This document shows, one piece after another, positions 639 through 60,035 of a DNA stretch of 64,000 nucleotides; position 1 is the stretch's first letter; each line of letters begins with the position of its first letter. The position numbers and the translations under genes were made by a program. The notes under the pieces were generated by a model. The model did no database searches. It saw only the letters and a program-made list of their open reading frames with translations, and was not told the origin of the DNA. The stretch comes from an uncultured cyanobacterium. GTDB lineage: Bacteria > Cyanobacteriota > Cyanobacteriia > Phormidesmidales > Phormidesmidaceae. The stretch is from positions 128,001 to 192,000 of the forward strand of contig CAWBZI010000002.1 of the NCBI GenBank assembly GCA_963793265.1, read 5' to 3'.

Positions 639-3362
639 ATGTCGATGCCTCAAAAAAATCTGCGATTGCGCCTTCTTAAGTTTTGCTCGCTAGCCTGCGC
701 CACTTGGCTGAGCGTATGCCTGTTTCACGGCTCAGCCGCTCGTGCCAATCCGCCCGCCACCTTGGCAGCTAGCCCAGCCATTTCACAACAAACCATTTCA
801 CAACAAACCATTTCACAAGCAGATCCAGCCTCGCTAGAGCAGCGGGGAAAAGCACGCTACGAAGCCGGTTACTTTACAGAAGCCGTTGAGCTTTTACAGC
901 AGGCCATTCAGACTTATCGGCAGCAGGGAGAAACGCTGCATCAGGCGATCGCACTTAGCAACCTAGCGCTTACCTACCAGCAGCTAGGCAACTGGCCGCA
1001 GGCCAACAACACCATTCAACAAAGCCTTATCCTCTTAGCTGATGCCGCTGGTCAGCCTGCAAATCGCTCGTCAGCGATCGCTCAAGCGCTAGACATTCAA
1101 GGTCAGCTGCAAATAAATCAGGGCCAGGCTGAACAAGCGTTGACGAGCTGGCAGCAGGCCGCTGACTATTACAAACAGATCAATGCCACCAGTCGCCTGA
1201 CCAAAAATCAAATAAACCAGAGCCGCGCGCTGCAAACCCTGGGGTTCTACCACCAGGCGCTGAGCTTGCTGAGTGAGCGATCGCAAGCATTAGCCGCTCA
1301 GCCAGGCTCTTTGAACAAAGCCGCAGAACTCCGCAGCTTAGGAGAAGGGTTGCAGGCCGTTGGAAACTTACAAGAAGCGGAGGCTCGGCTGCTAGAGAGC
1401 TTAGCGATTACTCAGCGACTAACTCACCTATCCGACCCCGGTCAGGCAGTCGAGGCGATCGCCCTGACGCAGCTTAGCTTAGGCAATACAGCACGCGCAC
1501 AGCAAAACACAGCCGCCGCACTTGACTGGTATCAGCAGGCAGCAGCGATCGCAAACTCAACGGCAACGCGGCTACAGTCCAACCTAAATCGTCTGAGCCT
1601 GCTCGTCGAGGCTGCTCAACCTGCTCAGGCTCAATCTGCTCAGGCCCAGTCTCTGATCCCTGAGGTTCAACAGCAGCTAGCAGCCCTCCCGCTTAGCCGA
1701 ACCGCCGTCTATGCGCGCATAAACTTAGCCAGCAGCCTCAGCAAAACAACAGATGTCTCGTCTTCTTTAGAAGCTGCCACACTGCTTTCTACCGCCGCTA
1801 AGCAAAGCGAACAGCTCGGCGACAGGCGGACTCAATCCTATGCAATAGGGCTGCTAGGGGGGCTTTACGAATCCACTCAGCAGTGGTCTGAAGCTGAAGA
1901 TTTAACGCGGCAAGCCCTACAGATAGCGACATCGGCTAACGCTGCTGATGTGACCTATTTATGGCAGTGGCAGCTAGGCCGTATTCTCAAGGCTCGCGCT
2001 GAGCCAGGTAGCGCTCAATCAGGAGATTTAGTAGAGAATAGAAAGGAGGCGATCGCTCTTTATACGCAGGCTATCAAAACGCTGCAATCTCTACGATTAG
2101 ACGTGGCCTCTATTAATTCAGATCAGAAGTTCTCCTTCAAAGAGAGCGTAGAACCTGCCTATAGAGAACAGATCGGGCTACTGCTTCATCCGATAGAAGG
2201 TGCGCCCAATCAAGCAGATTTGAGGGCCGCGCGAGATGCACTAGAGTCTTTGCAAACGGTTGAACTACAAAACTTCTTTCGCGAAGCCTGTCTGGACGTT
2301 CCTATCGCCATTGATCGCGTTGTAGAGCAAACCGAGGCGCTTTCTAAAAGCTCAAATAGCGCCCTTGCCGCCGTTGTTTATCCCATTGTTCTAGCCGACA
2401 GCTTTGAGGTTGTGCTGAAGCTGCCGAACCAAGATAAACTGCTTCACTACTCAACACCTATAGGGCAAAAAAGCGTAGAGAAAACGCTGCTTAAGCTGCG
2501 CGATCAAATCACTCAGCCTGATAGTCAACTGTCTGTTGAAGTGCTTTCTGAGCAGGTTTATGACTGGTTAGTTCGTCCTGCTGAACTAACCTTGCAGGAG
2601 AGTCATATTAGTACATTGGTCTTTGTCTTGGACGGTTTTTTAAAGAACATTCCTATGGCTGCGCTGTATGACGGCGATCGCTATCTGGTTGAAACCTACG
2701 GCATCGCGCTAACGCCCGGACTAGAGCTTGTCGATCCTAAACCGATGGAGCGAGAAAACATACAAATGCTGTTTGCCGGACTCAGTGAAGCCGTTGAAAA
2801 CTTTACGCCGCTCGTGGCTGTAGAACAAGAGCAAGCAGGGATTGCTGAAGAGATTTCAAAGACGACTGTTTTATTAAACGATTCGTTTACAGCTAAAGCC
2901 TTAGAGACTCAGGTTGAGCAAACGGCCTTTCAGGTTGTTCATTTAGCGACCCACGGCGAATTTAGCTCCGATCGCCAAAAAACCTTTATCCGCCTGCGCG
3001 ATCGCCGCATGACCACAGACGAACTCAGCCGCATTCTCAAAACCCGACAAACGCAGCCAAACCCGATTGAGCTATTAACGCTAAGCACCTGCGCAACCGC
3101 CGAAGGTGACGAAAGAGCCGCGCTTGGCTTAGCGGGCGTTGCCGTTCAGTCTGGGGCGCGCAGCACGCTTGCTTCTCTGTGGAGCATTGACGATCGCGCT
3201 AACGCTTTTTTGATGGTTGAGTTTTATCATCAGCTCATGCAAAACCCATCTTTCTCCAAATCCCAAGCCTTACGTCAGGCGCAGCTCAAGCTCGTCAACC
3301 ATCCCAACTACGCCCATCCTTCCTACTGGGCTCCTTACGTACTGCTAGGAAACTGGCTCTAA
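639..3362 (+). CDS. Secreted TPR-CHAT protease (HetF-like caspase superfamily)
   Basis: Signal-peptide-like N-terminus (..GSAARA), TPR repeats, CHAT with HLATHG and LSTCAT dyad, C-terminal HPSYWAPYVLLGNWL; ATG 639 preferred over TTG 591, which lies in the promoter element. Confidence 0.93.
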   Translation: MSMPQKNLRLRLLKFCSLACATWLSVCLFHGSAARANPPATLAASPAISQQTISQQTISQADPASLEQRGKARYEAGYFTEAVELLQQAIQTYRQQGETLHQAIALSNLALTYQQLGNWPQANNTIQQSLILLADAAGQPANRSSAIAQALDIQGQLQINQGQAEQALTSWQQAADYYKQINATSRLTKNQINQSRALQTLGFYHQALSLLSERSQALAAQPGSLNKAAELRSLGEGLQAVGNLQEAEARLLESLAITQRLTHLSDPGQAVEAIALTQLSLGNTARAQQNTAAALDWYQQAAAIANSTATRLQSNLNRLSLLVEAAQPAQAQSAQAQSLIPEVQQQLAALPLSRTAVYARINLASSLSKTTDVSSSLEAATLLSTAAKQSEQLGDRRTQSYAIGLLGGLYESTQQWSEAEDLTRQALQIATSANAADVTYLWQWQLGRILKARAEPGSAQSGDLVENRKEAIALYTQAIKTLQSLRLDVASINSDQKFSFKESVEPAYREQIGLLLHPIEGAPNQADLRAARDALESLQTVELQNFFREACLDVPIAIDRVVEQTEALSKSSNSALAAVVYPIVLADSFEVVLKLPNQDKLLHYSTPIGQKSVEKTLLKLRDQITQPDSQLSVEVLSEQVYDWLVRPAELTLQESHISTLVFVLDGFLKNIPMAALYDGDRYLVETYGIALTPGLELVDPKPMERENIQMLFAGLSEAVENFTPLVAVEQEQAGIAEEISKTTVLLNDSFTAKALETQVEQTAFQVVHLATHGEFSSDRQKTFIRLRDRRMTTDELSRILKTRQTQPNPIELLTLSTCATAEGDERAALGLAGVAVQSGARSTLASLWSIDDRANAFLMVEFYHQLMQNPSFSKSQALRQAQLKLVNHPNYAHPSYWAPYVLLGNWL
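778..818 (+). repeat. 15-bp in-frame tandem repeat (ISQQT)
   Basis: CAAACCATTTCACAA, about 2.7 copies. Confidence 0.85.
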
Positions 3363-3396
3363 TAGTCAGCTTTCTGATGGTGTCGCGGCTAACCCA

Positions 3397-3442
3397 TGAC
3401 AAATGTCATAGCTTCAATGCGAGTCATCTATGACATTTGCGA
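3397..3442. promoter_or_regulatory. TGACAAATGTCA operator-like palindrome upstream of caspase operon
   Basis: TGACAAATGTCA at 3397-3408 and TGACATTTGCGA at 3431-3442. Confidence 0.6.
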
Positions 3443-3634: not shown

Positions 3635-4222
3635 ATGACCCATCATCTCTATGCTCTACTGGTTGGTATTAATGAGTACGATAGGCGATCTGGCATCTCT
3701 TCACTACAGGGATGCACCAATGACGCCAACGCAATGAAAGCCTATCTGGAAGCTCGGGTTGCTAGCGACAAAACGCAGCTACATACCAAAATGCTGCTCA
3801 ATGAGCAGGCCACCCGGCAGGCAATTATTAATGGCTTTAGAGAGCATTTACAGCAGGCAAAAGCGGGCGATACCGTTCTCTTTTACTATGCAGGACACGG
3901 CTCTCAAGACAAAACACCAGAAGAGTTTTGGCCAACCACGCCTAGCAGACTTAATGAGACATTAGTATGCCACGATAGCCGCACGCCTGACGTTTGGGAT
4001 TTGGCAGATAAGGAACTCTCTAAGCTGATTGCAGAAGTGAGCCAGCAAAATCCTCATATTGCAATCGTGCTGGACTGTTGCCATTCAGGATCGGGGACTC
4101 GCAGTGATGAAAGAGCGGTGTTTAAAAGAGAACGACACCAATGGATCAGCGCGATCGCCCAGCTAGCAGCTTTTTGGTATCGGTTCAAGAATTGGAACAA
4201 ACGGAAAGAGAAAAATCCCTAA
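3635..4222 (+). CDS. Caspase-like C14 protease, p20-like catalytic half (frameshift-split from next ORF)
   Basis: ALLVGIN, GCTNDA, YAGHG (His), DCCHSGSGTR (Cys); similarity ends near 4130. Confidence 0.85.
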   Translation: MTHHLYALLVGINEYDRRSGISSLQGCTNDANAMKAYLEARVASDKTQLHTKMLLNEQATRQAIINGFREHLQQAKAGDTVLFYYAGHGSQDKTPEEFWPTTPSRLNETLVCHDSRTPDVWDLADKELSKLIAEVSQQNPHIAIVLDCCHSGSGTRSDERAVFKRERHQWISAIAQLAAFWYRFKNWNKRKEKNP

Positions 4223-7200
4223 CCTCTACACGCGCTCGTAGCCTCGATTTTTCAACAACAGGATGGCATTTGCCACAGGGGCGTCATGTGTTGATGGCAG
4301 CCTGTCGCGATGTTGAAGAGGCCAGTGAGTATCGTGCTCATGGAGAGCCCTGCGGCGCATTCTCCCACTTTTTGCTAGACACACTGCAAAGAACAGATAG
4401 CACACTGACTTACCGAGATCTTTTTAACGCAACCGCTGCTAAAACGCGAGCCAACGTATCAGCTCAGGCACCTCAGCTAGAAGCGCCCTATCTCGAAGAC
4501 CTTGAACAGCTTTTTTTAGGCGGACTGGTTGAGCCTTTCCCGCCTTACTTTACGCTCGCGTATTTGCCTGAACTCGGCTGGTGTGTTAACGGCGGCGCGC
4601 TGCATGGTGTTCAGCCACCGCTTAATAATGAAGCAACACAGCTAGCGCTGTTCTCTATCGAAGCTCAGCCAGAGAATCTCCATCGGTTAGAAGGTGCGAT
4701 CGCCAACGCTACCGTCACCGACGTACAGCCACACCTCAGCCAAATTACAACAGAGGCTGAGCTAGATACTGGCTTAACGTACAAAGCGATCATTACCTAC
4801 TTACCGGTGCCGCCGCTGAACGTTGTTTTAAAAGGAGATACCGAGCGCCTCGAAATACTTCGTCAGGCCATGCAAACGCCAACTGCCGCCTCTTCGAGCT
4901 ATCTCAAAGAAGTAACAGAGATTGCAGCAGCAAACATTTGCGTCACTGCTCATTCGTCGGGATATGTGATTGAACAATCGCAAGCGCAGTCAAGAGCGAT
5001 CGCAGTCGTTGAAGCGGCTGTTGAAAATGGGGCTCGGATCCTAGATAGTGCTGATAGTGTCGTTCGTTTGCTAGCGCATATTGCTCGATGGACAGGCGTT
5101 GCTGAGCTAGCGCCACCGCTAGGCAATCAGCTACCGGCTAACGCGGTAGAGCTTCAGATTTATGATGAAGATTGGCTTGTACAAGGCGAGCAGATACAGC
5201 TTGAATACGAACAGCACGCACAGCAGTCGCGTCCGCCAAGCTTTAGAGCCAAGCTGATTAATCATAGCGATCGCCCGCTCTACTGCGCGCTGCTCAACCT
5301 AACCGAAGAGTACTCAGTCAGCGCCCCTTTCTTTGGCAGTGGCGGCACCTGGTTGAACGCACATAGCGAAGTTTGGGTCACCGTTGCAGGCGCAACTCAG
5401 CTCAGCGACCTAATTCCGACCACGGTTCCTCAACGGCTATGGGAGCAGGGTGTAAGTGAATATCAAGATCGGCTGAAGCTGATTGCTAGCACAGCAGAGT
5501 TTGATCCCACTGTTCTGTTGCAAAACAAAATTGGTCAGGCTGAGGCGATCGCACAAAGAAGCATCGCTGTATCGAAAGACAATCTGTTTCGCCAGTTTGC
5601 CAGTCAGACAGCCAGTCAGACAGCCTCTCGTGATATTGGCATGGCCGAAGCGGTTGAGACTGTAGATCAGTGGATGACCAGTCAGCGGCTCATCACAACC
5701 AGACGACCGCAGCCGGACGTGCAAATATCGGCAGAAAATACTGTTTCTTTGGCAACAGCAGATGCGAGTAGAAGCATAGAACGGATCGCCATTCGCCCTC
5801 ATGCTCAGCTCAAAGCAAAAGCGAGACTTGTGAGTGCTGCTCAGACCACGCGAAATGCAAATGTTCCAGGCTTACCACCACTGCTTAGAGAACAGACTCA
5901 GCCTCTGGTGTTCGCCGCGCGTCGTAGCGTGTCATCTGCTCTAGACGCATTAGAACTCAGTGAAATCGATAGTGCAGATTCAGTAACGCCCAGCAATCCG
6001 CTGACGTTAATCATAGATGCACCGCTGGCACCAGGAGAATCTGTTCTGCCGGTTACCTACGATGGTGAATTCTTCGTGCCGCTAGGATATGGTCACCGCC
6101 GGGGCGACCAGCAAACTGAAGTTGTACTTCATCACCTTCCTGAACACGCTGCGCCAGCCGATTCTGACGAAAGCGGCAAGAGAGGGATTAGCAGCGCGCT
6201 CCAGATTGTTTTCAGAAAGATAGCGAGTCAGACGTTGGGTACAACGCTCAGTCAGAAGCTAGGCATTTTTTTTGAATATCCCATTCTGGCCTCTGTAGAA
6301 AAAGAGCATGGGCAAAATGATTTGCTTTATACCACTGATACTGATGCGATCGCAACGCTTGTCGCCAAAGCCGAGAACATCGCCATTTACATCCACGGCA
6401 TTACAGGTAATACAGAATATATGATGCCAAGCATTCAGACAGCTTGCATTGAGATGTCAGGCCAAGCTCGCCCCGTCAGTGACCTGTACGATCTGGTATT
6501 AACCTACAACTATGAGAGTCTCAATACCTCTATTGCTCAGAGTGCTGTTCAGCTCAAGCAAAAGCTAGCCGCTGTTGGCATTCTGCCTGGGCACAACAAA
6601 ACAGTTCACATCGTAGCGCACTCTATGGGCGGTCTTATTAGCCGCTGGTTTGTTGAACAAGAAGGCGGTAAAGAGATTGTTCAGCATCTGATAATGCTGG
6701 GCACACCCAACGCCGGATCGCCCTGGCCAGTTGTGCAAGCCGGACTCTTTAAGTCGCTTAGCTTTGCCCTCAATGGCCTGGCTACGGTGGCCTGGCCGCT
6801 GTCTCTTATTGGCGGCGTCCTAACAGCGCTCGAAGCAATCGATATTGCGCTAGATGAAATGGATCCTGGATCGGAGCTGCTAGCGCACTTGGCCGAAAGT
6901 GAACCGCCGATTCCCTACAGCATCGTAGCGGGTAATACTAGCCTGATACCAGTAGATGAAAAGGCCAAACTAAGAGATCGGCTCGCGCAAAAGCTGAACA
7001 AGCTCGCTGAGCTTCCTTTTTTGAAAGAAGACAATGACGTGGCAGTCTCTGTCAGCAGTATTCGACATGTGCCTGCGGGCAGACTCCACGCGCCCCAAGT
7101 TCGCGAGGTGGCCTGTAATCACATGGTTTACTTTATCGATCCGGCGGGGCTATCTGGGCTCAGTTGGGCCATCAATAGAGCCTTTGCGATGACCAAAAAA

Positions 7201-7224
7201 CAGCTTCAGAGTGCGACTCACTGA
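4141..7224 (+). CDS. Caspase p10-like region + linker domains + C-terminal alpha/beta-hydrolase (lipase-like)
   Basis: AACRD..GAFSHFL..QAPQLE (caspase C-terminal half); IHG, AHSMGG nucleophile elbow, GTPNAGS, NDVAV, CNH catalytic His. Confidence 0.82.
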   Translation: MDQRDRPASSFLVSVQELEQTEREKSLTSTRARSLDFSTTGWHLPQGRHVLMAACRDVEEASEYRAHGEPCGAFSHFLLDTLQRTDSTLTYRDLFNATAAKTRANVSAQAPQLEAPYLEDLEQLFLGGLVEPFPPYFTLAYLPELGWCVNGGALHGVQPPLNNEATQLALFSIEAQPENLHRLEGAIANATVTDVQPHLSQITTEAELDTGLTYKAIITYLPVPPLNVVLKGDTERLEILRQAMQTPTAASSSYLKEVTEIAAANICVTAHSSGYVIEQSQAQSRAIAVVEAAVENGARILDSADSVVRLLAHIARWTGVAELAPPLGNQLPANAVELQIYDEDWLVQGEQIQLEYEQHAQQSRPPSFRAKLINHSDRPLYCALLNLTEEYSVSAPFFGSGGTWLNAHSEVWVTVAGATQLSDLIPTTVPQRLWEQGVSEYQDRLKLIASTAEFDPTVLLQNKIGQAEAIAQRSIAVSKDNLFRQFASQTASQTASRDIGMAEAVETVDQWMTSQRLITTRRPQPDVQISAENTVSLATADASRSIERIAIRPHAQLKAKARLVSAAQTTRNANVPGLPPLLREQTQPLVFAARRSVSSALDALELSEIDSADSVTPSNPLTLIIDAPLAPGESVLPVTYDGEFFVPLGYGHRRGDQQTEVVLHHLPEHAAPADSDESGKRGISSALQIVFRKIASQTLGTTLSQKLGIFFEYPILASVEKEHGQNDLLYTTDTDAIATLVAKAENIAIYIHGITGNTEYMMPSIQTACIEMSGQARPVSDLYDLVLTYNYESLNTSIAQSAVQLKQKLAAVGILPGHNKTVHIVAHSMGGLISRWFVEQEGGKEIVQHLIMLGTPNAGSPWPVVQAGLFKSLSFALNGLATVAWPLSLIGGVLTALEAIDIALDEMDPGSELLAHLAESEPPIPYSIVAGNTSLIPVDEKAKLRDRLAQKLNKLAELPFLKEDNDVAVSVSSIRHVPAGRLHAPQVREVACNHMVYFIDPAGLSGLSWAINRAFAMTKKQLQSATH

Positions 7225-39977: not shown

Positions 39978-39990
39978 GCATTCGGCAGTC

Positions 39991-53158: not shown

Positions 53159-53161
53159 CGT

Positions 53162-53340
53162 TTAAGCGCCTCCTTTAGGCAACTTCGATGATTCTACGTC
53201 TTCACGCTGAGGCGCTGCGAGTAAATAATCAATCTCATCAATCAAAATCACCGGCAGCGATCGCCACTGTGGATGCTGGCGTAGCTCGCGAATAAATTCA
53301 AAGCCGTCCATGTCTGGCATCATTAAATCAAACAAAATAA
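53162..53340 (-). pseudogene. Receiver-domain fragment
   Basis: ILFDLMMPDMDGFEFIRELRQHPQWRSLPVILI lacking both N- and C-terminal REC parts. Confidence 0.6.
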
Positions 53341-53382
53341 AGCTTCCGTAGACTATAGAACTCAACTCTGAACACAAACATC

Positions 53383-53418
53383 TAACCAATGTCATGAATA
53401 GGAGCGTGACATTTGTCA
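53383..53418. promoter_or_regulatory. Paired operator-like palindrome
   Basis: TAACCAATGTCA-N12-TGACATTTGTCA in divergent intergenic region. Confidence 0.65.
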
Positions 53419-53575
53419 TATTGCCTTTCTCGCTCAATCGCGCTTCCCCTTTCTTGGCTATCTAAATAGAAAATGCCTAACGCTAAACGGATACTCTGTT
53501 TGTAAAAAATGCATAATAACAGCCCCATATTCTTGAGAAGTTGATGTATGGAAAATACGTTTAAGAGACTTCGTA

Positions 53576-54808
53576 ATGGGACTTTTACAATCTGCCCTCC
53601 AACAGCAAACCGCGAGATTGATATATCGTCGCGGCATTGGCTACGAGCAGCGGCAGCTTCACAAGCAGGCGATCGCATCCTTCACTCAAGCGATCGCAAA
53701 AGGATACACACCAACTGCCAAAGCCCTCATTCACCGCGGCATCAGCCGACTGAATACGCAGAATACAGCAGGCGCGATCGCTGACTTTGACGCAGTTATT
53801 CAAACAGCTATCCAACAAAATGACGCGTCCTCATATCTCGCAGCGCAAGCCCTGTTCTTCAAAGGTAAAATCTACAGACAAAAAGGAGACAACAAAGCCG
53901 CCTGGATTAGCTGGGCCGCAGCTATCGACTATTGTCCTACCTACGCGCAGCCCTACTATCACAGAGCTTTATTTTTGATTGAACAAGACAGGCCCAATAA
54001 AGCTTTGTCTGATTTAGATGCGGCCATAGAAATAGACCCTTCTATGGCGATCGCCTATCTTCAGCGCGGAAACTTGCGCTATCAAACCGGCAATATCGAG
54101 GGGGCGATTTTCGACTGGCAACATGCTCTGTGCAATGACTTCACCCTTAAGAGCGCCAAACAAGCGCTAGCAAAGCTTCAGCACGATACCTATCAAGATC
54201 AGCTTAGCCAGGTTCTAGTAGCGCCCTTGGCAGAAAAAGAGCTAAGCGTAAAAGTTCGCTACCAAAGCGATCGCAGCCAAGATAGCAGCCAAAGCAACTG
54301 CCTCAATATCTACGTGCACAGAGAAACCGGCAAAGGCGTTAACTACTACACGCTGCCCGATCTTATTCGTCAGCATTTAGTGCCACTACAGCTAGATAGC
54401 ATTAGTCGCTTTCGGCTCATTGGCACAGTTGGCAACGCAACTGGGCCCGACTGGGATAAATCTTACGACCTCTATAAAAATCAGCCCTGTCCGCCTAGCA
54501 ACTGGCAGGCCGCTATCTTCGCAACCCTGCTGTTTCCACCCCTGGCGGTTCCTGCTTTCATTCAAGCTGCGAGCGTAAAACGTACCTATGCAAAAGGTAA
54601 ATATATTAACGCGCTCAACGCCTCTAAACTGGTCGGCATTTTTAGCGCTGCCAGCAGTATTCCATTTTGCTTTTTCGTATTTTTGATGGTCATCTGCGCC
54701 AGCTACGACGAAACAGGAATCAAGTTCAGCGATCGGCCCGCTGTAAGAATTGTAAGCTGTTCAAAGGATTCGTACTCACTCTGCATAAAAACGACGCCTG
54801 GCCTTTGA
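53576..54808 (+). CDS. TPR protein with C-terminal CD225/dispanin-like membrane domain
   Basis: TPR repeats; PPSNWQAAIFATLLFPPLAVPAFIQAASV...Y..G.Y..A..AS fits the CD225 pattern. Confidence 0.72.
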   Translation: MGLLQSALQQQTARLIYRRGIGYEQRQLHKQAIASFTQAIAKGYTPTAKALIHRGISRLNTQNTAGAIADFDAVIQTAIQQNDASSYLAAQALFFKGKIYRQKGDNKAAWISWAAAIDYCPTYAQPYYHRALFLIEQDRPNKALSDLDAAIEIDPSMAIAYLQRGNLRYQTGNIEGAIFDWQHALCNDFTLKSAKQALAKLQHDTYQDQLSQVLVAPLAEKELSVKVRYQSDRSQDSSQSNCLNIYVHRETGKGVNYYTLPDLIRQHLVPLQLDSISRFRLIGTVGNATGPDWDKSYDLYKNQPCPPSNWQAAIFATLLFPPLAVPAFIQAASVKRTYAKGKYINALNASKLVGIFSAASSIPFCFFVFLMVICASYDETGIKFSDRPAVRIVSCSKDSYSLCIKTTPGL

Positions 54809-54909
54809 GAGCACTGTAGAGGTTGCTGTGAGCGAACCTTAATGCTTAAAAAATAGTCAAAAGCTGGATAGCTAAAAAAACTTGATAGCCGAAAACTTGC
54901 CTAGAACCG

Positions 54910-55587
54910 ATGAACCTATCTGCCGAACGTTTAGAACAAACCCAGCTAGACGCTCACCTGCGGCAGCTAGCCATCACCGCCCAAAGGCAACCCAAGGGAA
55001 GCCTGGCCAGGCAGCGCGCGCTAACTGAGCTAATTAGCACAATGTTGCGATCGCACAAGCTATGCCGTCCTCGTCGGGGTCAGTTCAGGCTTTTGTACGA
55101 AGAAATCTACGCAGAAGCGCTCCAACGGCTGTTTTCGTTTGTGTGCGATCGCATTGACGACTACAGCGAGCAAAAGGGCGAGGTTCTGCAGTGGGTCAAC
55201 TTCTTACTCAGCCGACGTTTTTTTATCGAAGCCAGCCGAGACTATCTGCCGGTTGTGTACAAAGGAATGGATGCTAGAAGCGTTAAGCGACTGACGCTAG
55301 AGCATTTAGACCAAAGCAACCCTAGCGAGCTAAACCCCCAGCTCACCCCGTCACTCTCTCAAGAAGTGAAAGCCTGCTTGGAAGAAGACCCAGAGAGCCT
55401 ATTCAAAGCGGCCTGCGTTGCCGACGCTCCCGCCGCTAATTTTCAGTACATTGCACTGAAGCGGCTAGAAGGCTATTCCTGGCAAGATCTCTCTACTGAA
55501 CTCAATATCTCGGTGCCAACCTTGAGCAGCTTCTATCGCCGAGCGCTGGCCCGGTTTGCACCTAAATTAAGAACCTATCTATCTTAA
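54910..55587 (+). CDS. Cyanobacterial ECF/sigma-70-like factor
   Basis: YAEALQ......IDDY......WVNF (region 2-like); EGYSWQDLSTELNISVPTLSSFY (region 4 HTH). Confidence 0.75.
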   Translation: MNLSAERLEQTQLDAHLRQLAITAQRQPKGSLARQRALTELISTMLRSHKLCRPRRGQFRLLYEEIYAEALQRLFSFVCDRIDDYSEQKGEVLQWVNFLLSRRFFIEASRDYLPVVYKGMDARSVKRLTLEHLDQSNPSELNPQLTPSLSQEVKACLEEDPESLFKAACVADAPAANFQYIALKRLEGYSWQDLSTELNISVPTLSSFYRRALARFAPKLRTYLS

Positions 55588-55650
55588 GTTTTTATCCTAG
55601 CTTTTATCCGCTCACCTTCCGACTTAATTTCAATCGCTAGAGCACCTGAA

Positions 55651-56655
55651 ATGACCTATTCTACCAAGCAATCGTTAACGCTGACTGTTCCCCTCACCCT
55701 AGCAAGTCACCACAAGGCGCAGCTATTCTATCAGCGCCATGCCAACCCGCACAAAGCAAAGCAAATCTATCTCAACACGCTGGCAGTCACGGCTGTTCAC
55801 ACCTACTTAAGCTGGCTTGGCATCGAGAGCGATTTGCAATCGAGCGACAGTTGGAACCCGGTAATGCAAACGCTCGCAGACACTGCCGATTTAGAAGTTT
55901 TGGGGCAAGGTAGGGTGGAGTGTCGCCCTGTATTGCCCAAGGCCACAGCCTGCTATATTCCCGCTGAAGCTAGCGCACATCGCATTGGCTATCTGCCCGT
56001 TCTTTTAGATGCAGACTTGCAAAAGGCGACGCTGCTCGGCTTTATTCCTGGCACAGAGGTTAGCGCCGAAACCCCAGAAGTGCCGCTGACAAGATTGCAG
56101 CCCATGACCTCCCTTTTTGACATGCTTTTTGATCCGCTCAAACCGCCTTCTGATCTGGCTAGCAAACGCGTTTGCCTGAGGCGGTGGCTCGCAGGAACCA
56201 TTATAGATGGCTGGCAGTCTGTAGAAGCATTGCTGGGGCCGCAGCCCGACTTTAGCTTTAGAAGCTTGGAGCTATCTAATCCAAATGATATTGATGGAAG
56301 CGACACTGCTAAAGCTGCTGTACGCGGTAAGCTGCTCGAACTATCGCGGCCCGCTACAAACAACCTTCAGACAGAGCAGCCTCAGCCGGGCCGGGTTGCG
56401 CTGGTTGTAAATATTGCGCCGACTGATGCGCTGCAATCGAATATTTGGATTAAGCTTTGTCCGGTTGGGGGCGATCGCTATCTTCCAGAAGCGTTAGAAA
56501 TTAGAATTCTTGACGATCAGCAGGCGGTGGTAATGGAGGCACAATCTAGACAAACAGACATGATACAGCTTCACTTTCGAGGCATGTTGAACGAACAGTT
56601 TGCCGTTGAGGTCGCGCTGAACGGTGTTAGTTTGGTAGAAAAGTTTGTCATCTAA
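55651..56655 (+). CDS. DUF1822 family protein
   Basis: KAKQIYLNTLAV.AV..YL, SDSWNP, ADL.V...GRVECRPV, RIGY..V, LLGF, L..WL....GW. Confidence 0.9.
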   Translation: MTYSTKQSLTLTVPLTLASHHKAQLFYQRHANPHKAKQIYLNTLAVTAVHTYLSWLGIESDLQSSDSWNPVMQTLADTADLEVLGQGRVECRPVLPKATACYIPAEASAHRIGYLPVLLDADLQKATLLGFIPGTEVSAETPEVPLTRLQPMTSLFDMLFDPLKPPSDLASKRVCLRRWLAGTIIDGWQSVEALLGPQPDFSFRSLELSNPNDIDGSDTAKAAVRGKLLELSRPATNNLQTEQPQPGRVALVVNIAPTDALQSNIWIKLCPVGGDRYLPEALEIRILDDQQAVVMEAQSRQTDMIQLHFRGMLNEQFAVEVALNGVSLVEKFVI

Positions 56656-56670
56656 GCAACGGGAAGCATC

Positions 56671-59232
56671 GTGACTGTTGGTGGAAAGGGTGGTGAAAAT
56701 GGGAAGCTCGTTATCCTTAAGTTTGACGGCGATCTTCATCAGGGATTCAGGGTTTCGCTAGAGATTGGTGATGAGGGCGATCGCCCTACCATTGAGCTAG
56801 CGGGCGCGCTACCGCCTAGCCCGGAGCTGGTGTCGCACCTGTGTCAGTGGCAGGAGCACTACCGTAGCTTAAGCGCTCACAGCCCAACTAATAGTAGAAT
56901 TCAGCCGCAGCAGATTATTTATGGGGGATCTGTCAACCGCCTGGAAGAATGCTGGCGATCTGCAACAGCGCTATATCAGCAAATGGCGGTGTGGCTAGAG
57001 TCTTCTTCCTTTCGCCGCCTCGATTTGCGATTGAGAGAAAGCTTGAGCCTGAGCGATCCGATTAGAGTCCTCATTCGCAGCGAAGATCCGCTATTGCAGC
57101 GGTTGCCCTGGCATCTGTGGGACTTTACAGAACGCTACGTCAAAACAGAGATCGCGCTGAGTGCCCCGGTTTCTGAGCGGATTGAAGTAGAAGCAACCGC
57201 TGCGCTCACTCACAGCGTCAAGATTTTAGCCATTTTAGGCAGCAGCGAAGATATTAATATTCAAGCCGACAGGCATTTCTTGGCGGCCTTGCCTGATGCC
57301 AAAGTCACTTTTTTAGTCGAACCTTCTAGAGAAGAGATTAACCAGCAGCTATGGCAGCAGTCTTGGGATATTTTGTTTTTTGCCGGACATAGCTCAACCG
57401 AAGGCGATCGCGGCTTAATCTACATCAACCCCACCGAAAGCCTAAACCTCGAGGAGTTGAAATACGGGTTAAAGCAGGCAATATCGAGAGGACTTCAGCT
57501 TGCTATTTTCAACTCTTGTGATGGCTTAGGACTCGCTCGGTCATTAGAGTATCTGCATCTGCCACAAATGATTGTGATGCGAGAGCCTGTACCCGATCGC
57601 ATTGCGCAGTCGTTTTTGAAGTCTTTTCTCAAAACATTTTCGAGTGGCAAATCTCTTTATCTCTCCGTACGCGAAGCCAGAGAACAGCTTCAGAGCTTAG
57701 AAGATCGGTTTCCCTGTGCCACCTGGCTTCCCGTCATCTGTCAGAACTCGGCTAGAATTCCGCCAACCTGGCAATCGCTGATCGAAGGGAGGCCGTCTGA
57801 TCGTTTGGGCCTTAGTAGTGCTAGCGATCGCAACGCTGGTACCGAAAACATCGCCCAGGGTTTGCCCGCAACAGCGAGCGCAGCCACAGCACAGCCATAC
57901 CGTCGCACTATGCAGCAGTATGCGCGGCGGTACGGGCCCTTACGGCATTTTTCCCATCAGATTCGTAGAGGATGGATTGTACTGCTTGTTAGCTTAGTCG
58001 TAACGCTGGGGCTGAGCAGTCCTTTTGCGCTCAGTCAGATGCAGCCTTTAGAAATCGGCATTTATGATCGCATGGTGCGGCTACGGCCCGATGAAAGGGC
58101 TGATTCTCGCTTGCTCGTCATTGGCGTGACCGATACCGATATTGAAATGCAAAAAGAGAATGAAGAGCTGTTGAAGCGGCAGTCGCTTTCAGAACAAACG
58201 TACGGACAAACCTTTGAAACCTCTCTCTCAGATCAGTCTCTCAACCGCCTGCTAGATAAGCTCGCGGAATATCAACCGCTGGTGATTGGCTTAGATCTAT
58301 ACCGTGACTTTGCTGCTGCATCTGACCAAAGCGCTCTATCCGATAAGCTACAGCAAAACAGCGAGCTAATCGCCGTCTGTAAAGCTGAGGACTTTGAGGA
58401 TCTTTCTATCTCTAGCATCGATCCGCCGCCAGAAGTTCCGCTGAACCGCGTCGGTTTTAGTGACTTTAGAGAAGATAGTGACGGTATTTTGAGGCGACAT
58501 CTCTTAGGTATGCTGCCGCTGGTGAGAACTGAAGCCTCACGTTGCAATACCGACTGGTCTTTTAGTCTACAAGTTGCGTCTCGATATTTGCAGCAGCAGC
58601 AGATAGCCACTGAGTTTCAAGACTCGGGAGACTTGCGGCTAGGGCGTCAAACTGTAGATGTTTTGCGATCTGGCTCTGGCGGCTATCCACCTGATGCCGG
58701 GGGCAGTGAGATTATGCTTAACTATCGCGCCACGCCAGAAATCGCGCCGACGGTAACGCTTCAACAGTTCTTAAACCAACAGACGAATCCTAACTATCTT
58801 GCAGGCAAAATCGTGCTGATTGGCGTGATTGCAGAAGGCGAAGAAGATCACTGGCTGACGCCGACCTGTCCTTCTACAAAAATGCCGGGTGTGATCGTGC
58901 AGGCGCACATGATTAGTCAACTGCTGAGCGCTGCCTTAGACAATCGCCCGCTTTTGAAACCACTGTCGCGATCGCAGCAAATCGGCTGGGTGAGTACGTG
59001 GGCAATTGTCGGCGGATTTCTAGCGTTTTGGCAATGGCCCTCAAAGCGTAAGGCGTGGGCGATCGCTCGAATAATGCTGAGCCTGGTAGGTGCGATCGCC
59101 CTCCTCTACGGGCTGAGCTTCCTTGGCTTGCTCAGGGGCCACTGGCTACCCTTCGTTTCACTGGCGCTGGCTTTGGTTTCATCTAGCATACTTGTGACCA
59201 TCTATTTGTTCGCTAGTCCTCAGAAGCAGTAG
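56671..59232 (+). CDS. CHAT-TM-CHASE2 sensor protease
   Basis: FFAGHS/FNSCDG; D.RLLVI, IGLDLYRD, VGFSD...D.DG..RR, GKIVLIG, PGV..QA; three C-terminal TM helices. Confidence 0.92.
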   Translation: MTVGGKGGENGKLVILKFDGDLHQGFRVSLEIGDEGDRPTIELAGALPPSPELVSHLCQWQEHYRSLSAHSPTNSRIQPQQIIYGGSVNRLEECWRSATALYQQMAVWLESSSFRRLDLRLRESLSLSDPIRVLIRSEDPLLQRLPWHLWDFTERYVKTEIALSAPVSERIEVEATAALTHSVKILAILGSSEDINIQADRHFLAALPDAKVTFLVEPSREEINQQLWQQSWDILFFAGHSSTEGDRGLIYINPTESLNLEELKYGLKQAISRGLQLAIFNSCDGLGLARSLEYLHLPQMIVMREPVPDRIAQSFLKSFLKTFSSGKSLYLSVREAREQLQSLEDRFPCATWLPVICQNSARIPPTWQSLIEGRPSDRLGLSSASDRNAGTENIAQGLPATASAATAQPYRRTMQQYARRYGPLRHFSHQIRRGWIVLLVSLVVTLGLSSPFALSQMQPLEIGIYDRMVRLRPDERADSRLLVIGVTDTDIEMQKENEELLKRQSLSEQTYGQTFETSLSDQSLNRLLDKLAEYQPLVIGLDLYRDFAAASDQSALSDKLQQNSELIAVCKAEDFEDLSISSIDPPPEVPLNRVGFSDFREDSDGILRRHLLGMLPLVRTEASRCNTDWSFSLQVASRYLQQQQIATEFQDSGDLRLGRQTVDVLRSGSGGYPPDAGGSEIMLNYRATPEIAPTVTLQQFLNQQTNPNYLAGKIVLIGVIAEGEEDHWLTPTCPSTKMPGVIVQAHMISQLLSAALDNRPLLKPLSRSQQIGWVSTWAIVGGFLAFWQWPSKRKAWAIARIMLSLVGAIALLYGLSFLGLLRGHWLPFVSLALALVSSSILVTIYLFASPQKQ

Positions 59233-59279
59233 GTTATATCTTGGTATAATTACGCACAAAGCCGCCCAAGAATAACTAG

Positions 59280-60035
59280 ATGAAAGCTTCCGCTCGACGC
59301 TTCAAACAACTTCCTAAGCGCTTCCTGGCGATCGCAGGTGCTATTACACTAGGGGCGACTGCAATCACCCTGACCACGCCCCCGGCAGAAGCTAGCCTGA
59401 GTCTATTGTCTGCCACCAAAAGCAAGCTAGCCAGAGGCAGAGTTCCTGGCCGCAGACGCGGTGGAGCCCGGCGCGGATCTTGTTCCAATACGCAAACGCC
59501 CTTGGTCGCAATCGTTGCTGCCACCGAGGTTGACACTGAAACGCTGCCTGAAACCTATGTAGGTGGAATAACTGCTGCCGAGTATCCTACCTTTTGGTTT
59601 GATGTGCCCTACTCACTTACGAATGAGCTAACCGCCGAGTTCGTTTTGCAAGATGACCTTGGCCAGGATGTGTACCGGGCTACTTCTGCTGAGTTTGCGA
59701 CGGCTGGGCAAACGCCTGGTGTGATGGGCATTGCGCTCCCGCCTGAGCTGGCACCGCTAGAAATTGGCAAAGTCTATCAGTGGTATTTCAAAGTTAACTG
59801 TGGTTCAGAAACGCCGCCTTATGTGCAAGGTGGAATTGAGAGAGTTGCGATCGCGCCTCGTCTGGCCAATCAGCTACGGGCGGCTACACCGTTAGAGCAA
59901 GCCGCGCTCTTTCAAGAAAATGAGCTTTGGTACGATGCGGTGACAATCCTCGCACCGCGCCATCGCGCCGAGCCTGATAATTCAACTATCCAGGCTATTT
60001 GGAACGATCTGTTGCAATCTTTAGATCTGCAATAG
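59280..60035 (+). CDS. DUF928 family secreted protein
   Basis: Signal peptide; PGRRRGGARRG.C, PTFWF.VPY, L..GK.Y.W, LWYDA. Confidence 0.9.
   Translation: MKASARRFKQLPKRFLAIAGAITLGATAITLTTPPAEASLSLLSATKSKLARGRVPGRRRGGARRGSCSNTQTPLVAIVAATEVDTETLPETYVGGITAAEYPTFWFDVPYSLTNELTAEFVLQDDLGQDVYRATSAEFATAGQTPGVMGIALPPELAPLEIGKVYQWYFKVNCGSETPPYVQGGIERVAIAPRLANQLRAATPLEQAALFQENELWYDAVTILAPRHRAEPDNSTIQAIWNDLLQSLDLQ

Follow-up and report, generated by a model that had tools for sequence, protein, structure and literature searches.

Several described systems resemble parts of the locus analyzed here. Excerpts of Kaur et al. 2021 describe EACC2-caspase/ECF-sigma/DUF1822 systems, and bacterial STAND and TIR proteins are, according to extracts from the literature, established anti-phage sensors and effectors. 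In Serratia, chitinase export needs a holin together with a peptidoglycan endopeptidase, as reported in excerpts of two studies (PMC4259817, PMC5778951). We set against these a 64,000-nucleotide stretch of cyanobacterial DNA (the window), which is 1.1% of a 5.68-Mb genome (G000 in our genus comparison of 40 other genomes, 41 including this one). The genome encodes HetR, so the organism is probably filamentous, and the public DNA runs containing the stretch are labeled as macroalgae and sediment metagenomes from two studies.

A preliminary description had read the whole window as an innate immunity island resembling that of plants, and the parts that it listed are present. The window has genes for six clan-CD proteases with intact His and Cys (g1, g2, g7, g9, g12 and g34), a TIR domain (TIR_2, in g7), three lipase-type hydrolases (g3, g14 and g18), two lytic peptidoglycan hydrolases (g4 and g6), a PR-like set in g19-g23 (GH19, a weakly assigned GH17, GH64, CAP and metzincin), an oxylipin enzyme (g24) and a di-haem peroxidase paired with a kinase (g27 with g26). 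The three NLR-like WD40 proteins (g8, g9 and g12) were also found, among four NTPases of STAND/AAA_35 type, but these are typed as nSTAND1 and AAA_35, not NB-ARC.

Five transcription units (g9, g18, g23-g19, g30 and, in a 22-nt-spacer variant, g2/g3-g8) are preceded by a composite promoter, which consists of the near-palindromic box1 TGACAWWTGTCA, a spacer of 11-12 nt, box2 TGACATTT..GATGTTT (consensus form TGACATTTRT..GATGTTT) and a -10-like TAnnnT hexamer about 18-26 nt past box2. Geometry and direction were taken from 13 instances in four genomes, and the -10 and -35 assignments were made by eye. The five sites are as follows:

3397..3442, plus strand: variant operator of g2/g3; box1 TGACAAATGTCA, 22-nt spacer, box2 TGACATTTGCGA
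16531..16596, plus strand: g9 promoter; box1 16531-16542, box2 with GATGTTT 16554-16572, -10-like TAGGTT 16591-16596; 45.7 bits
36683..36725, minus strand: g18 promoter; box1 36714-36725, box2 36683-36701; 42.0 bits
42657..42699, minus strand: g23-g19 promoter; box1 42688-42699, box2 42657-42675; 42.4 bits; a leader of roughly 440 nt lies between it and the operon
53376..53418, minus strand: promoter facing g30; box1 53407-53418, box2 53376-53394; 45.7 bits

The composite occurs in this genome only within the window. A genome scan with a composite position-weight matrix, trained partly on the window's own sites, returned six matches of at least 20 bits, every one of them in the window. All four box pairs of the genome also fall there, all intergenic, and the exact 12-mer TGACA[AA/TT]TGTCA has four copies in the 5.68 Mb, three of them in the window and all three intergenic. 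We consider it very probable that the five units constitute one shared regulon.

The g30 unit adjoins a set of signaling and oxylipin genes:

42879..45680, minus strand: g25, no assigned function, and g24, plant-type fatty-acid alpha-dioxygenase
45801..51341, mixed strands: signaling core g26-g29
g26, minus strand: DAHL-HisKA-HATPase-REC hybrid kinase with two transmembrane helices
g27, minus strand: membrane-anchored di-haem CCP/MauG/MbnH-like enzyme (CCP_MauG)
g28, plus strand: REC-HisKA_3 kinase
g29, plus strand: REC-GerE regulator, NarL-type
51347..53437, minus strand: g30, three receiver domains and a HisKA-like region; the entry includes a receiver-domain remnant ORF (53162-53437) that precedes g30

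Ahead of g28/g29 and of g26/g27 themselves, no composite turned up in this genome. Over its full length g24 matches plant fatty-acid alpha-dioxygenases (4kvj, E 2e-118); a lone weak palindrome, TAACAAATGTTA, lies beside g25/g24 at 45685-45696 with no box2 there, so the regulation of these two genes is uncertain. All three genome loci with clustered boxes encode a HisKA_3 kinase and a GerE regulator, and the whole genome has 19 GerE matches.

Comparison with relatives tied the boxes to the same four genes. A DAHL kinase orthologue (at least 57% identity) is present in 4 of the 40 other genus genomes, all of which keep the four-gene unit, g29 not being seen on the 26-kb contig of G035; all five loci retrieved from other genera keep the core as well. 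In G016, G017 and G032 the orthologous cores carry boxes, as do three of the five loci from other genera (with at most one mismatch; paired in L045), and no intergenic box was found in four island-like loci without the core. A stricter promoter pattern matched 3 of the 41 genus genomes (two matches each in G000 and G032, one in G046), while its reversed version, used as a control, matched nowhere in the 41. In other cyanobacteria, judging from these loci, the boxes accompany the four-gene core g26-g29. The shared operator of the preliminary description is real, specific to the island, conserved in relatives and linked to the local peroxidase-kinase signaling genes. A sensor-gated regulon is well supported, and co-occurrence makes g29 the likely activator.

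Promoter targets are also conserved in part. Orthologous targets are g2/g3 in G000 and G032, where the 22-nt-spacer arrangement is retained as well, and g18 in G000 and G016; in G016, g5-g6 have a site of their own and the g9 orthologue adjoins the kinase core. Approximately 130 nt upstream of the GH19 operon align column for column with the sequence upstream of a GH18 chitinase in G032. Behind the conserved promoter, that genome has GH18 chitinases, non-homologous to the window's GH19, where this one has GH19, GH17-like and GH64 enzymes.

The protease and STAND genes of the window are the following, with the neighbors of g2/g3:

591..3362, plus strand: g1, secreted TPR-CHAT protease (Pfam CHAT E 4e-54; an N-terminal hydrophobic leader as signal peptide)
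3635..7224, plus strand: g2/g3, C14 caspase (clan CD, 3635-4222), about 700 aa of unassigned function, DUF7379/PGAP1-like alpha/beta hydrolase
7296..10105, plus strand: g4, M15 peptidase; g5, C2-like conserved protein; g6, PG_binding_1 plus GH19-like
10187..16533, plus strand: g7 (10187-12430), CHAT-TIR_2-AAA_35, and g8, AAA_35, one predicted transmembrane helix, WD40 repeats
16642..20613, plus strand: g9, C14 caspase, nSTAND1, one predicted transmembrane helix, WD40
23287-27870, plus strand: g12, N-terminal module, CHAT, nSTAND1, transmembrane helix, WD40
56671-59232, plus strand: g34, N-terminal module, CHAT, CHASE2

The window holds 6 of the genome's 35 clan-CD matches (23 CHAT and 12 C14), against about 0.4 expected. 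Catalytic His and Cys are invariant both in the four aligned CHAT domains and in the two C14 domains (AGHG; DCC[HF][SA]G). In g8, g9 and g12 the predicted transmembrane helix separates the NTPase from the WD40 repeats, which suggests that these proteins sense extracytoplasmic signals. The caspase and hydrolase g2 and g3 (nucleophile elbow AHSMG) are one gene, split in the assembly by a 1-nt indel in an A-run at 4124-4127: contigs of all three public runs covering the site (X1, X2 and X3) have an extra A after 4123, and the G032 orthologue is a single 1206-aa ORF. Downstream, g4 (Peptidase_M15_3) is a peptidoglycan peptidase and g6 a GH19-like muramidase/chitinase. The predicted model of g5 (pLDDT 76.7, pTM 0.80) combines a beta-sandwich with a hydrophobic helical hairpin; C2 domains rank first in both fold searches, with a middling match (Z 6-7) that points to a C2-like lipid-binding fold. 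The ends of g7 and g8 overlap, so these two probably share an operon with g2-g6, making g2-g8 a single unit; the g7-g8 pair is retained in G032, G003 and G035.

The second large unit encodes the PR-like enzymes, next to a lipase gene with its own promoter:

36982..42183, minus strand: PR-like operon, in the order g23, g22, g21, g20, g19
g23, minus strand: LysM, beta-gamma-crystallin, GH19 chitinase (PDB 2cjl, E 5e-69)
g22, minus strand: myroilysin-type metzincin plus crystallin (5gwd, E 2e-65; HEFGHALGLIH)
g21, minus strand: crystallin plus CAP (PR-1-like)
g20, minus strand: GH17-like, weakly assigned (Pfam 33 bits; PDB 6fcg, E 8e-6)
g19, minus strand: GH64 beta-1,3-glucanase (Pfam E 6e-72)
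34958..36607, minus strand: g18, SGNH/GDSL-type lipase with an N-terminal GDS block and no signal peptide

Homologues of the crystallin-CAP protein are 229-242 aa long, and CAP homologues of other cyanobacteria carry fusions to LysM, mannan-binding and ricin-type lectin modules. By inspection of N-termini and Kyte-Doolittle windows, rather than a dedicated predictor, signal peptides are absent from the chitinase, the glucanases, CAP, the metzincin, the lipases and g4-g6, which include both peptidoglycan hydrolases; the PETase-like hydrolase g14 has one. Prochloraceae homologues and the G032 GH18 chitinases are leaderless too. One Prochloraceae MAG carries a leaderless GH19-GH17-GH64 cassette, with no homologue of the window's caspase or STAND genes in the surrounding 10-15 kb. 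Leaderless PR-like and wall enzymes fit release by lysis. We saw no small membrane protein of holin type in the window, so the exit route from the cell is one that we infer.

We propose that a local phosphorelay acts through a single composite promoter of activator type to switch on five or more transcription units. In this model, g26 and g27 would sense a periplasmic cue, which may be oxidative because a di-haem enzyme and a neighboring alpha-dioxygenase are encoded here; phosphate would pass by way of g30 and g28 to g29, and phosphorylated g29 would bind box1 and box2 (at roughly -65 and -42) to activate the regulon. The output would arm death modules of caspase/CHAT-STAND-TIR type, with WD40 sensors that may sit on the far side of the transmembrane helix. 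The membrane and the wall would then give way to the SGNH lipase and the caspase-lipase fusion, together with g5 (C2-like) and two wall enzymes, the M15 peptidase and the GH19-like muramidase. The dying cell would release cytoplasmic enzymes against chitin, beta-1,3-glucan and possibly sterols, substrates that to our knowledge cyanobacteria do not make, and these would hit a eukaryote with a cell wall, for instance a parasitic fungus or oomycete that has attached itself to the filament. As a whole, a phosphorelay-switched regulon with cell lysis and enzyme release onto a eukaryotic parasite is our best explanation, held at slightly below an even chance; its final step, lysis-dependent release against a eukaryote, is a tentative proposal on the doubtful side.

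Alternatively, the regulon might be shared without any suicide: the phosphorelay would induce chitinase, laminarinase-type glucanases, protease and CAP as antagonistic or foraging enzymes, and live cells would export these along a non-classical, type-10-like route with the help of the M15 peptidase and the muramidase. The enzymes would serve to compete, or to scavenge nutrients, on the surfaces of algae or detritus, and the STAND, caspase and TIR genes would belong to ordinary conflict systems that had acquired the same promoter cassette. The two peptidoglycan hydrolases and the Serratia precedent speak for this, as do the macroalgal and sediment labels of the runs and a promoter that acts as a portable cassette ahead of differing cargo. 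GH19 also includes lysozymes, and laminarin-type (algal) glucans are also cleaved by GH17 and GH64, the glucan cleavage again agreeing with foraging. We nevertheless judge it unlikely: the window shows no holin-like gene and none for chitobiose or laminaribiose uptake or catabolism, the organism is a phototroph, and the promoter stands directly on g9 and on the caspase-lipase fusion, which shares an operon with wall hydrolases.

The regulon with lysis does not extend to the entire window. Approximately one-third of the genes (g1, g13-g17 and g31-g35) lack the element and have other shared motifs. They are listed here together with the cassette g10-g12:

20673..27870, plus strand: EACC2-type cassette of g10 (no assigned function), g11 (DUF1822) and g12
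27950..34956, mixed strands: g13-g17, genes without operator
g13: signal peptide and PEP-CTERM-like tail
g14, minus strand: PETase-like hydrolase with signal peptide (GHSLG)
g15: TPS-domain protein, filamentous-haemagglutinin-type
g16, minus strand: secreted, no assigned function
g17: SBF transporter
53576..60035, plus strand: g31-g35, EACC2-type system in which the operator was not found
g31, plus strand: TPR plus CD225 membrane domain
g32 and g33, plus strand: sigma-70 region-4-like protein; DUF1822
g35, plus strand: DUF928, secreted

Motif TGCATAATTTC occurs upstream at 27895, 29827 and 33990, with a further copy at 507, and g1, which lacks the TGACA operator, shares a 5' region of about 85 nt with g15 (repeat D13). 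The cassettes g10-g12 and g32-g34 are paralogous (g12 and g34 N-termini, 43% identity over 391 aa, E 2e-98). The former is retained in G032, G015 and G003, while G035 and G032 also have g31-g34 close to the kinase core, and a g17 homologue lies beside the regulator gene in G016, G017 and G057. Co-inheritance fared no better: of the 40 other genus genomes none yielded the GH19 catalytic domain, 8 yielded g5 and 13 full-length g7 (at least 74% identity), both frequently without the kinase. Neighborhoods without the core include g17-g2/3-g5-g18 in G044, g5-g10-g11-g12 in G015 and g7-g8-g10-g11-g12 in G003. The modules recombine between genomes and turn up without the sensor system, rather than being co-inherited; what travels together is the boxes and the four-gene core. 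The window is not the single circuit first described but a mosaic island of accessory genes.

Such a mosaic invites a reading in which conflict genes merely pile up at a hotspot and the repeated promoter is a local duplication with no common purpose. Consistent with it are the many module combinations, some without the kinase core, the 29 further clan-CD genes elsewhere in the genome, a transposase beside one relative's locus and a REP/RAYT remnant at 60.0-61.0 kb of the window. We regard this as quite improbable, however, as the composite is kept across genera, direction and spacing included, with the same four signaling genes and ahead of chitinases that are equivalent in function without being homologous, and the same modules are repeatedly neighbors in unrelated arrangements.

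Developmental death, in which single cells (necridia) undergo programmed lysis for filament fragmentation or dispersal and the glycosidases remodel sheath or exopolysaccharide, is very unlikely. Necridia serve fragmentation, HetR points to a filamentous lifestyle, and wall hydrolases, lipases and caspase homologues come under common regulation; but we know of no cyanobacterial sheath containing chitin, chitinase is the cargo in two genomes and comes from a different, unrelated family in each, CAP homologues elsewhere carry the lectin-type fusions noted above, and the island is missing from most species of the genus, which would be odd for a core developmental function. Highly improbable, too, is anti-phage abortive infection, with STAND, caspase and TIR proteins sensing phage, lysis genes aborting infection and the PR-like operon as unrelated cargo: the established anti-phage roles of STAND and TIR proteins and the generic PADLOC caspase and CHAT models matching g2, g7 and g9 favor it, but PADLOC matched no complete system on the window, the helix ahead of the WD40 repeats suggests extracytoplasmic sensing, and the same promoter drives enzymes without a phage substrate.

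The regulon that ends in lysis keeps part of the original idea of a circuit that sacrifices the cell and releases antifungals. Leaderless hydrolases of fungal-type polymers and endolysin-like enzymes in a co-regulated operon make that mechanism plausible, the fungal target and the cell death being the parts that we infer. Collectively, these data suggest a plant-like defense that kills the cell and releases antifungals, and a suicide-and-antifungal defense of this kind is now testable.

The cassettes g10-g12 and g32-g34 correspond to the EACC2-caspase/ECF-sigma/DUF1822 systems, as these are presented in excerpts of Kaur et al. 2021. Chitinase export in Serratia is holin-dependent in the excerpts cited above; in the window no gene of holin type was seen, and the peptidoglycan hydrolases g4 and g6 are present. 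With plant immunity the window has a few enzyme families in common; as its NTPases belong to nSTAND1 and AAA_35 rather than to NB-ARC, the resemblance is otherwise one of analogy.

The window (C2:128001-192000) makes up 1.1% of a 5.68-Mb genome in 7 contigs and carries 37 genes (g1 to g37, from an ORF listing and Pfam). These include every class that the preliminary description had named: proteases, NTPases, a TIR domain, lipases, lytic enzymes, PR-like enzymes, an oxylipin enzyme and a peroxidase-kinase pair. The six clan-CD proteases (g1, g2, g7, g9, g12 and g34) account for 6 of the 35 clan-CD matches in the genome, and the window also holds 2 of 15 nSTAND1 matches (10 of the 15 being above the cut-off) and 1 of 7 TIR_2 matches; relative to its share of the genome, it is enriched in all three. 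There are three lipase-type hydrolases, with nucleophile motifs AHSMG (g3), GHSLG (g14) and GDS (g18), and two peptidoglycan hydrolases, g4 (M15) and g6 (PG_binding_1 plus a GH19-like domain). Along its entire length, the protein encoded by g24 is similar to plant fatty-acid alpha-dioxygenases (E 2e-118), and the g27/g26 pair comprises a di-haem MauG/MbnH-like enzyme and a DAHL hybrid kinase. PADLOC recognized only its generic caspase and CHAT models in the window, NCBIfam gave the window proteins no name at the equivalog level, no tRNA gene and no Rfam family at gathering score was found in the window, and no RNA runs were listed among the public runs containing the stretch. The genome encodes HetR (Peptidase_S48, E 8.5e-70), and the repeat listing contains many copies of the octamer GCGATCGC; taken together, these indicate that the cyanobacterium is filamentous.

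By k-mer counting over intergenic regions, we identified a shared operator, TGACAAATGTCA. Its exact box, in either central orientation, is present in four copies in the genome, three of which are in the window (at 3397, 36714 and 53407). With up to one mismatch, 6 of the 26 boxes in the genome fall in the window, as do all four box pairs (each box with at most two mismatches, starts 18-40 nt apart). Read toward the downstream gene, the architecture consists of box1, 11-12 nt, TGACATTTRT..GATGTTT (containing box2), ~18-26 nt and a TAnnnT hexamer. If the hexamer is a -10 element, box2 is centered near -42 and box1 near -65; provided that this reading, made by eye, is correct, the geometry is that of an activator-dependent promoter. 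The composite faces g9 (an nSTAND1 NTPase gene), g18, the operon of PR-like genes running from g23 to g19, and g30 (encoding a triple-receiver protein), and g2/g3 is preceded by a variant whose spacer is 22 nt. When we scanned the whole genome with a weight matrix of the composite, trained partly on these same sites, only the window sites were recovered, at 42-46 bits, with nothing else reaching 20 bits. For the other genomes of the genus we used a stricter pattern (a 12-13-nt spacer after TCA), which misses the sites with an 11-nt spacer (g9 and those of genomes G016 and G017) and that of g23; a looser box pattern was noisy, with at least one match in 21 of 31 genomes. The existence of a regulon co-regulated through this shared promoter is well supported, and we consider it highly probable.

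The leader of g23 (42184-42656) extends ~440 nt from promoter to start codon, has no Rfam match, and is conserved with genome G032 only over its first ~70 nt. Upstream of g30, a 91-aa ORF (53162-53437, minus strand) covers just the central part of a receiver domain (..MPDMDGFEF..), with the g30 promoter at its 5' end; this ORF is probably what is left of a gene that was once longer or had been duplicated.

The signaling genes form a four-gene core in which g28 (REC-HisKA_3 kinase) and g29 (REC-GerE) are divergent from g27/g26. The best named NCBIfam models for g28 and g29 (MctR and NarL) score under the respective equivalog cut-offs, and the genome contains 19 GerE matches. Orthologs of the DAHL kinase are present in 4 of 40 other genus genomes (G016, G017, G032 and G035, 57-78% identity), and homologs of the DAHL region (E ≤1e-30) in 9 of 200 other genomes across the class. 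Boxes accompany the core in G016, G017 and G032, where they lie upstream of kinase or regulator genes and of variable cargo that includes an ortholog of g18, g5-g6, a LanM/papain/hydrolase cluster, and a TPP-enzyme/amine-oxidase pair adjoining a CHAT-nSTAND1 gene. In G016, a protein-arginine deiminase gene (PAD, E 9e-124; locus L006, 14582-16729), of a family that is rare in bacteria, adjoins the g9 ortholog and the kinase core. Elsewhere in the class, all five fetched loci keep the four-gene unit and three have boxes with at most one mismatch, one of them (L045) in pairs; cargo around the cores of L041 to L045 was examined by tblastn with window proteins. Overall, boxes co-occur with the core in G016, G017, G032, L041, L043 and L045 and are absent from L046-L049, the four island-like loci examined that lack the core (in G015, G044, G003 and G035, contig C45); these have no intergenic box, their one box with a single mismatch being inside a coding region. 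Because boxes and core occur together, we assign the operator to g29, which is a probable candidate for the operator-binding regulator.

Two further clusters of related boxes in the source genome, at 450.9-459.2 kb and 333.6 kb of contig C7, each lie beside a HisKA_3 kinase and REC-GerE gene pair. In these loci (L001, C7:444001-464000, and L002, C7:326001-340000), the related boxes TGACTTTTGTCA and TGACAAACGTCA precede genes for an S9 peptidase, an HlyD-FtsX-ABC exporter, a beta-lactamase-family protein and proteins of no assigned function. They resemble paralogous regulons whose operators differ slightly.

Among the six proteases, which have a predicted catalytic His-Cys dyad, the His and Cys columns are invariant in all four CHAT domains and in both C14 domains (AGHG; DCC[HF][SA]G). 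In this assembly, the g2 frame ends after the Cys motif of the C14 domain, and the C-terminal part of the domain continues in the g3 frame. In contigs of three public runs from two studies, the A-run after 4123 is longer by one A, and the G032 counterpart is a single ORF of 1206 aa; the g2/g3 split is therefore an assembly indel or a rare variant, and the intact gene is predicted to encode a caspase-lipase fusion.

The window encodes four STAND-type NTPases, with AAA_35 in g7 (E 4e-135) and g8 (E 1e-28) and nSTAND1 in g9 (E 9e-97) and g12 (E 1e-120). They follow the STAND layout of an N-terminal effector (C14, CHAT or TIR), a central NTPase and C-terminal repeats, which are WD40 repeats in three of the four (g8, g9 and g12). 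Pfam scans of the N-terminal parts of these proteins yielded no NB-ARC or NACHT, the NTPase regions being nSTAND1 or AAA_35. The only TIR_2 domain of the window is in g7 (E 1.4e-17); its single PDB alignment, to 7uxr, places a Glu opposite the target's WTEYE segment but is too weak (E 0.055) to be relied on. The three WD40 proteins each have one hydrophobic stretch of ~19-23 aa flanked by Arg/Lys (aa 476-494 in g8, 751-769 in g9 and 832-850 in g12), located exactly between the NTPase and the repeats. Because this stretch separates the two, the WD40 propellers may be periplasmic sensors. The WD40 repeats of g8 (14079-15887) and g12 (26057-27535) are encoded by tandem DNA repeats of 123-126 nt that are up to 84-100% alike, and these are a substrate for recombinational diversification of the sensor.

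The five PR-like genes lie in a run on the minus strand, as follows.
g23: LysM, crystallin and GH19 domains; the GH19 domain matches Pfam (E 1e-55), PDB 2cjl (5e-69) and plant class I/IV chitinases (E 1e-42 to 1e-54).
g22: myroilysin-type metzincin; assignment as AbsR1 was rejected, as the NCBIfam match is partial and the myroilysin match much stronger.
g21: crystallin plus CAP (E 6e-25).
g20: weak GH17 (E 5e-8, 33 bits against a cut-off of 28; PDB 6fcg, 8e-6).
g19: GH64.

N-terminal signal-type leaders are present in g1, g13, g14, g15, g16 and g35; we found none in g4, g5, g6 or g18-g25. Each ORF was already taken at its greatest possible length, so a leader cannot have been missed upstream. 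A GH19-GH17-GH64 cassette in a Prochloraceae MAG is likewise leaderless, and crystallin-CAP homologs from Tolypothrix, Calothrix, Nostoc and Scytonema, at 229-242 aa, leave no room for one. Related CAP proteins carry LysM, mannan-binding or ricin-type lectin modules. Enzymes acting on chitin or beta-1,3-glucan have no substrate in the cytoplasm if they are retained there.

The co-regulated, operator-bearing g2-g8 operon encodes the caspase-lipase fusion, the M15 peptidase g4 (Peptidase_M15_3, E 1.5e-18; PDB 1lbu, 2.5e-9), g5 and the muramidase-like protein g6 (PG_binding_1, E 1.8e-17, plus the GH19-like domain), which places two peptidoglycan hydrolases under common control with the cargo. Judged by its predicted products, this operon encodes what opening the cell requires. 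A first structural model of g5 (9 sequences, pLDDT 36.8) was discarded; the second (28 sequences, pLDDT 76.7, pTM 0.80) consists of a beta-sandwich and a hydrophobic helical hairpin, and the sandwich resembles lipid-binding C2 domains (Foldseek and VIA-align; E ~3e-4, with a middling Z of 6-7). Protein-atlas matches to g5 were unnamed clusters only. A search in and beside the operon for a holin, as a small ORF with multiple hydrophobic segments, found none, g5 having a single hydrophobic hairpin and a C2-like fold. We also looked for g4-like N-termini in the Prochloraceae locus, where tblastn gave no match and the ORF proved to be a Peptidase_C39_2. Elsewhere in the window, the g13 product (27950-28705) begins with a signal peptide and ends in a hydrophobic tail and then basic residues; by eye, we take this ending to resemble a PEP-CTERM sorting signal.

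The regulon retains its promoter across genomes as its cargo changes. G032 keeps g31-g34 (inverted), g2/3, g4-g8, g10-g12, g14, g16, g21-g22 and g26-g30, and lacks g1, g9, g15, g17-g20 and g23-g24. In place of the GH19, GH17-like and GH64 genes, it has two leaderless GH18 chitinase genes whose promoter aligns with that of g23 column for column over ~130 nt, with no similarity beyond. Because the same cassette fronts unrelated enzymes that act on the same polymer, this is our strongest hint that chitin degradation is the selected output. At the position of g24 in G032, between the hydrolase operon and the kinase, is a GT28/UDPGT-type glycosyltransferase gene (locus L027, 15828-17096).

The GH19 catalytic domain is found in none of the 40 other genus genomes, two of which match the crystallin part only. 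Eight of the 40 have g5, and 13 have a full-length g7 (at least 74% identity), with two more carrying g7 in two pieces; the kinase is missing from most genomes with g5 or g7. The modules are thus not one unit of inheritance. They nevertheless adjoin again elsewhere, as g17-g2/3-g5-g18 in G044, g5-g10-g11-g12 in G015 and g7-g8-g10-g11-g12 in G003. Modules that assort INDEPENDENTLY had been named in advance as the finding that would speak against a single island: they do shuffle between genomes, which weakens the idea, but they shuffle among themselves, with recurrent neighbors, which favors it. The claim that the whole window is one plant-like island was overstated, as the regulon leaves out about one-third of the genes and the likeness to plants is mostly analogy.

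Further repeats in the window were observed between genes, as follows.
507-591 and 29826-29910: elements of ~85 nt with 78% identity, directly upstream of g1 and g15.
507, 27895, 29827 and 33990: TGCATAATTTC with at most one mismatch, all intergenic and upstream of genes for signal-peptide proteins (neighbors g1, g13, g14/g15 and g16/g17).
Upstream regions of g13 and g14: a 34-nt stretch, 79% common.
3557-3588 and 33827-33858: a 32-nt inverted match (75%; TGCAT.A.G ... CACCTATACAG), 50-80 nt upstream of the g2 and g16 starts.
60036-60967: a 932-nt gap containing a REP-associated tyrosine transposase-like ORF fragment (60478-60756, minus strand), two tandem 57-nt repeats (60399-60512, 95% alike) and 30-nt inverted repeats at 60317/60858.
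The element upstream of g1 and g15 has only these two copies genome-wide, which suggests a common promoter or leader for the secreted TPR-CHAT protein (g1) and the secreted TPS-domain protein (g15). Neither of two shorter candidates held up as a wider motif: the 16-mer TTGACTATTTGTTTCT has 68 genome matches at up to three mismatches, as expected by chance, its real copies being those upstream of g1 and g15, and TGCATAATTTC has 105 matches at up to one mismatch, which is close to chance, only the clustering of four in the window being notable.

How might leaderless enzymes reach an extracellular substrate? Full lysis seems likelier than gated export because lipases, caspase homologs and a C2-like protein replace the holin. 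We tentatively infer that lysis releasing anti-eukaryote enzymes is the best-fitting mechanism, a possibility rather than an expectation. In the scheme that we propose, g26/g27 would provide periplasmic input and g28/g30 would act as relay components, such that, in a multicellular cyanobacterium, a phosphorelay responding to a periplasmic signal would arm NLR-like receptors that span the membrane, along with executioners of the caspase-lipase kind. Lysis of individual cells would be deliberate, with C2-like, lipase and endolysin-type proteins doing the work of a holin, and would expose an attached parasite (a fungus or oomycete) to a cytoplasmic store of chitinases and beta-1,3-glucanases, together with a metzincin and a CAP protein of the PR-1 type. 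That the whole forms a bacterial counterpart of the plant hypersensitive response, joining phosphorelay-armed NLR-like receptors, programmed lysis and discharge of anti-eukaryote enzymes, with swappable cargo behind a conserved promoter, is a more speculative proposal that we judge unlikely.

Bacterial NLR-like, caspase and TIR systems have been studied almost only as antiphage devices, and, to our knowledge, little has been established on how filamentous cyanobacteria withstand eukaryotic parasites, chytrids among them. A search of the literature for cyanobacterial chitinase defense against chytrids yielded nothing on point among the matches listed. Cyanobacteria are known to make a few antifungal hydrolases, a field that one review calls "poorly explored" (PMC10300848, section 3.3). 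The island supplies a defined cis element, a candidate regulator and sensor, and a concrete prediction, namely that regulated lysis releases leaderless chitinase, glucanase and CAP proteins. If true, this would constitute an anti-eukaryote innate immune program in bacteria, extend altruistic-death immunity to bacterium-eukaryote conflicts, demonstrate a modular promoter-plus-cargo design, and help to explain, in functional terms, the CAP-lectin fusions that are widespread in cyanobacteria and the EACC2 and STAND cassettes.

Parts of the island resemble known systems. As in NarL/FixJ systems with HisKA_3 kinases, a family that g28 and g29 fit, a kinase is paired with a REC-GerE protein; the operator here is a palindromic 12-mer in two copies. 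Unlike those systems, the window adds an upstream DAHL hybrid kinase with a di-haem MauG/MbnH-like partner, as well as a triple-receiver protein. A narrow full-text search found no literature on a DAHL/di-haem/NarL regulon or on DAHL-domain histidine kinases.

By sequence, g10-g12 and g32-g34 fit the already known EACC2-caspase/ECF-sigma/DUF1822 systems, as predicted in the available text of Kaur et al. 2021. In both sets, a DUF1822 gene (TPR-like, PF08852; g11, E 9e-51; g33, E 2e-57) lies directly upstream of the gene with the caspase domain (g12 and g34, respectively), and g12 and g34 combine a constant N-terminal module (43% identity over 391 aa) and CHAT (E 9e-17 and 2e-15) with a variable C-terminus, which is nSTAND1-WD40 in g12 and CHASE2 with transmembrane helices in g34. 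This assignment rests on the shared N-terminal module and CHAT, the EACC2 domain itself having no model with which to score it. In contrast to those systems, the sigma-like partner g32 is weakly recognizable (Sigma70_r4_2, E 8.5e-5, 22.6 bits, below the cut-off of 25.7), and a two-component regulon, lipases and chitinases are not mentioned in the available text. As a sigma-like protein, g10 was rejected, having no Pfam match and no similarity to g32.

The fusions of caspase, CHAT or TIR effectors to STAND NTPases with WD40 repeats are like those of the NTP-dependent, NLR-related STAND/caspase/TIR conflict systems of multicellular bacteria, whose genes are enriched in filamentous bacteria and for which altruistic death was proposed (Kaur et al. 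2020, eLife e52696). Here, however, several of them lie behind a promoter common to secreted-type hydrolases and tied to a dedicated phosphorelay, and the available text of that paper makes no mention of lipase, chitinase, two-component or DUF1822. In type 10 secretion, as far as the available text of the two reports goes, chitinase export in Serratia marcescens (ChiWXYZ) depends on a holin and a peptidoglycan hydrolase, and what the chitinolytic enzymes need is a peptidoglycan endopeptidase, not one of the classical secretion machines of the outer membrane (PMC4259817, PMC5778951). The window similarly has peptidoglycan hydrolases (g4 and g6) in a co-regulated operon; unlike that system, no holin or spanin was detected in it, and its cargo is entirely without signal peptides.

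Compared to the plant hypersensitive response, the NTPases of the window are nSTAND1/AAA_35 rather than NB-ARC, control is exerted by a bacterial two-component system, the enzymes are predicted to be cytoplasmic rather than secreted, and a GH64 enzyme serves as second glucanase, with no thaumatin-type protein in the window. By analogy, both would combine receptor-gated local death with chitinase, beta-1,3-glucanase and PR-1/CAP proteins, and four plant families have real homologs in the window: GH19 (PR-3), GH17-like (PR-2, weak), CAP (PR-1) and alpha-dioxygenase.
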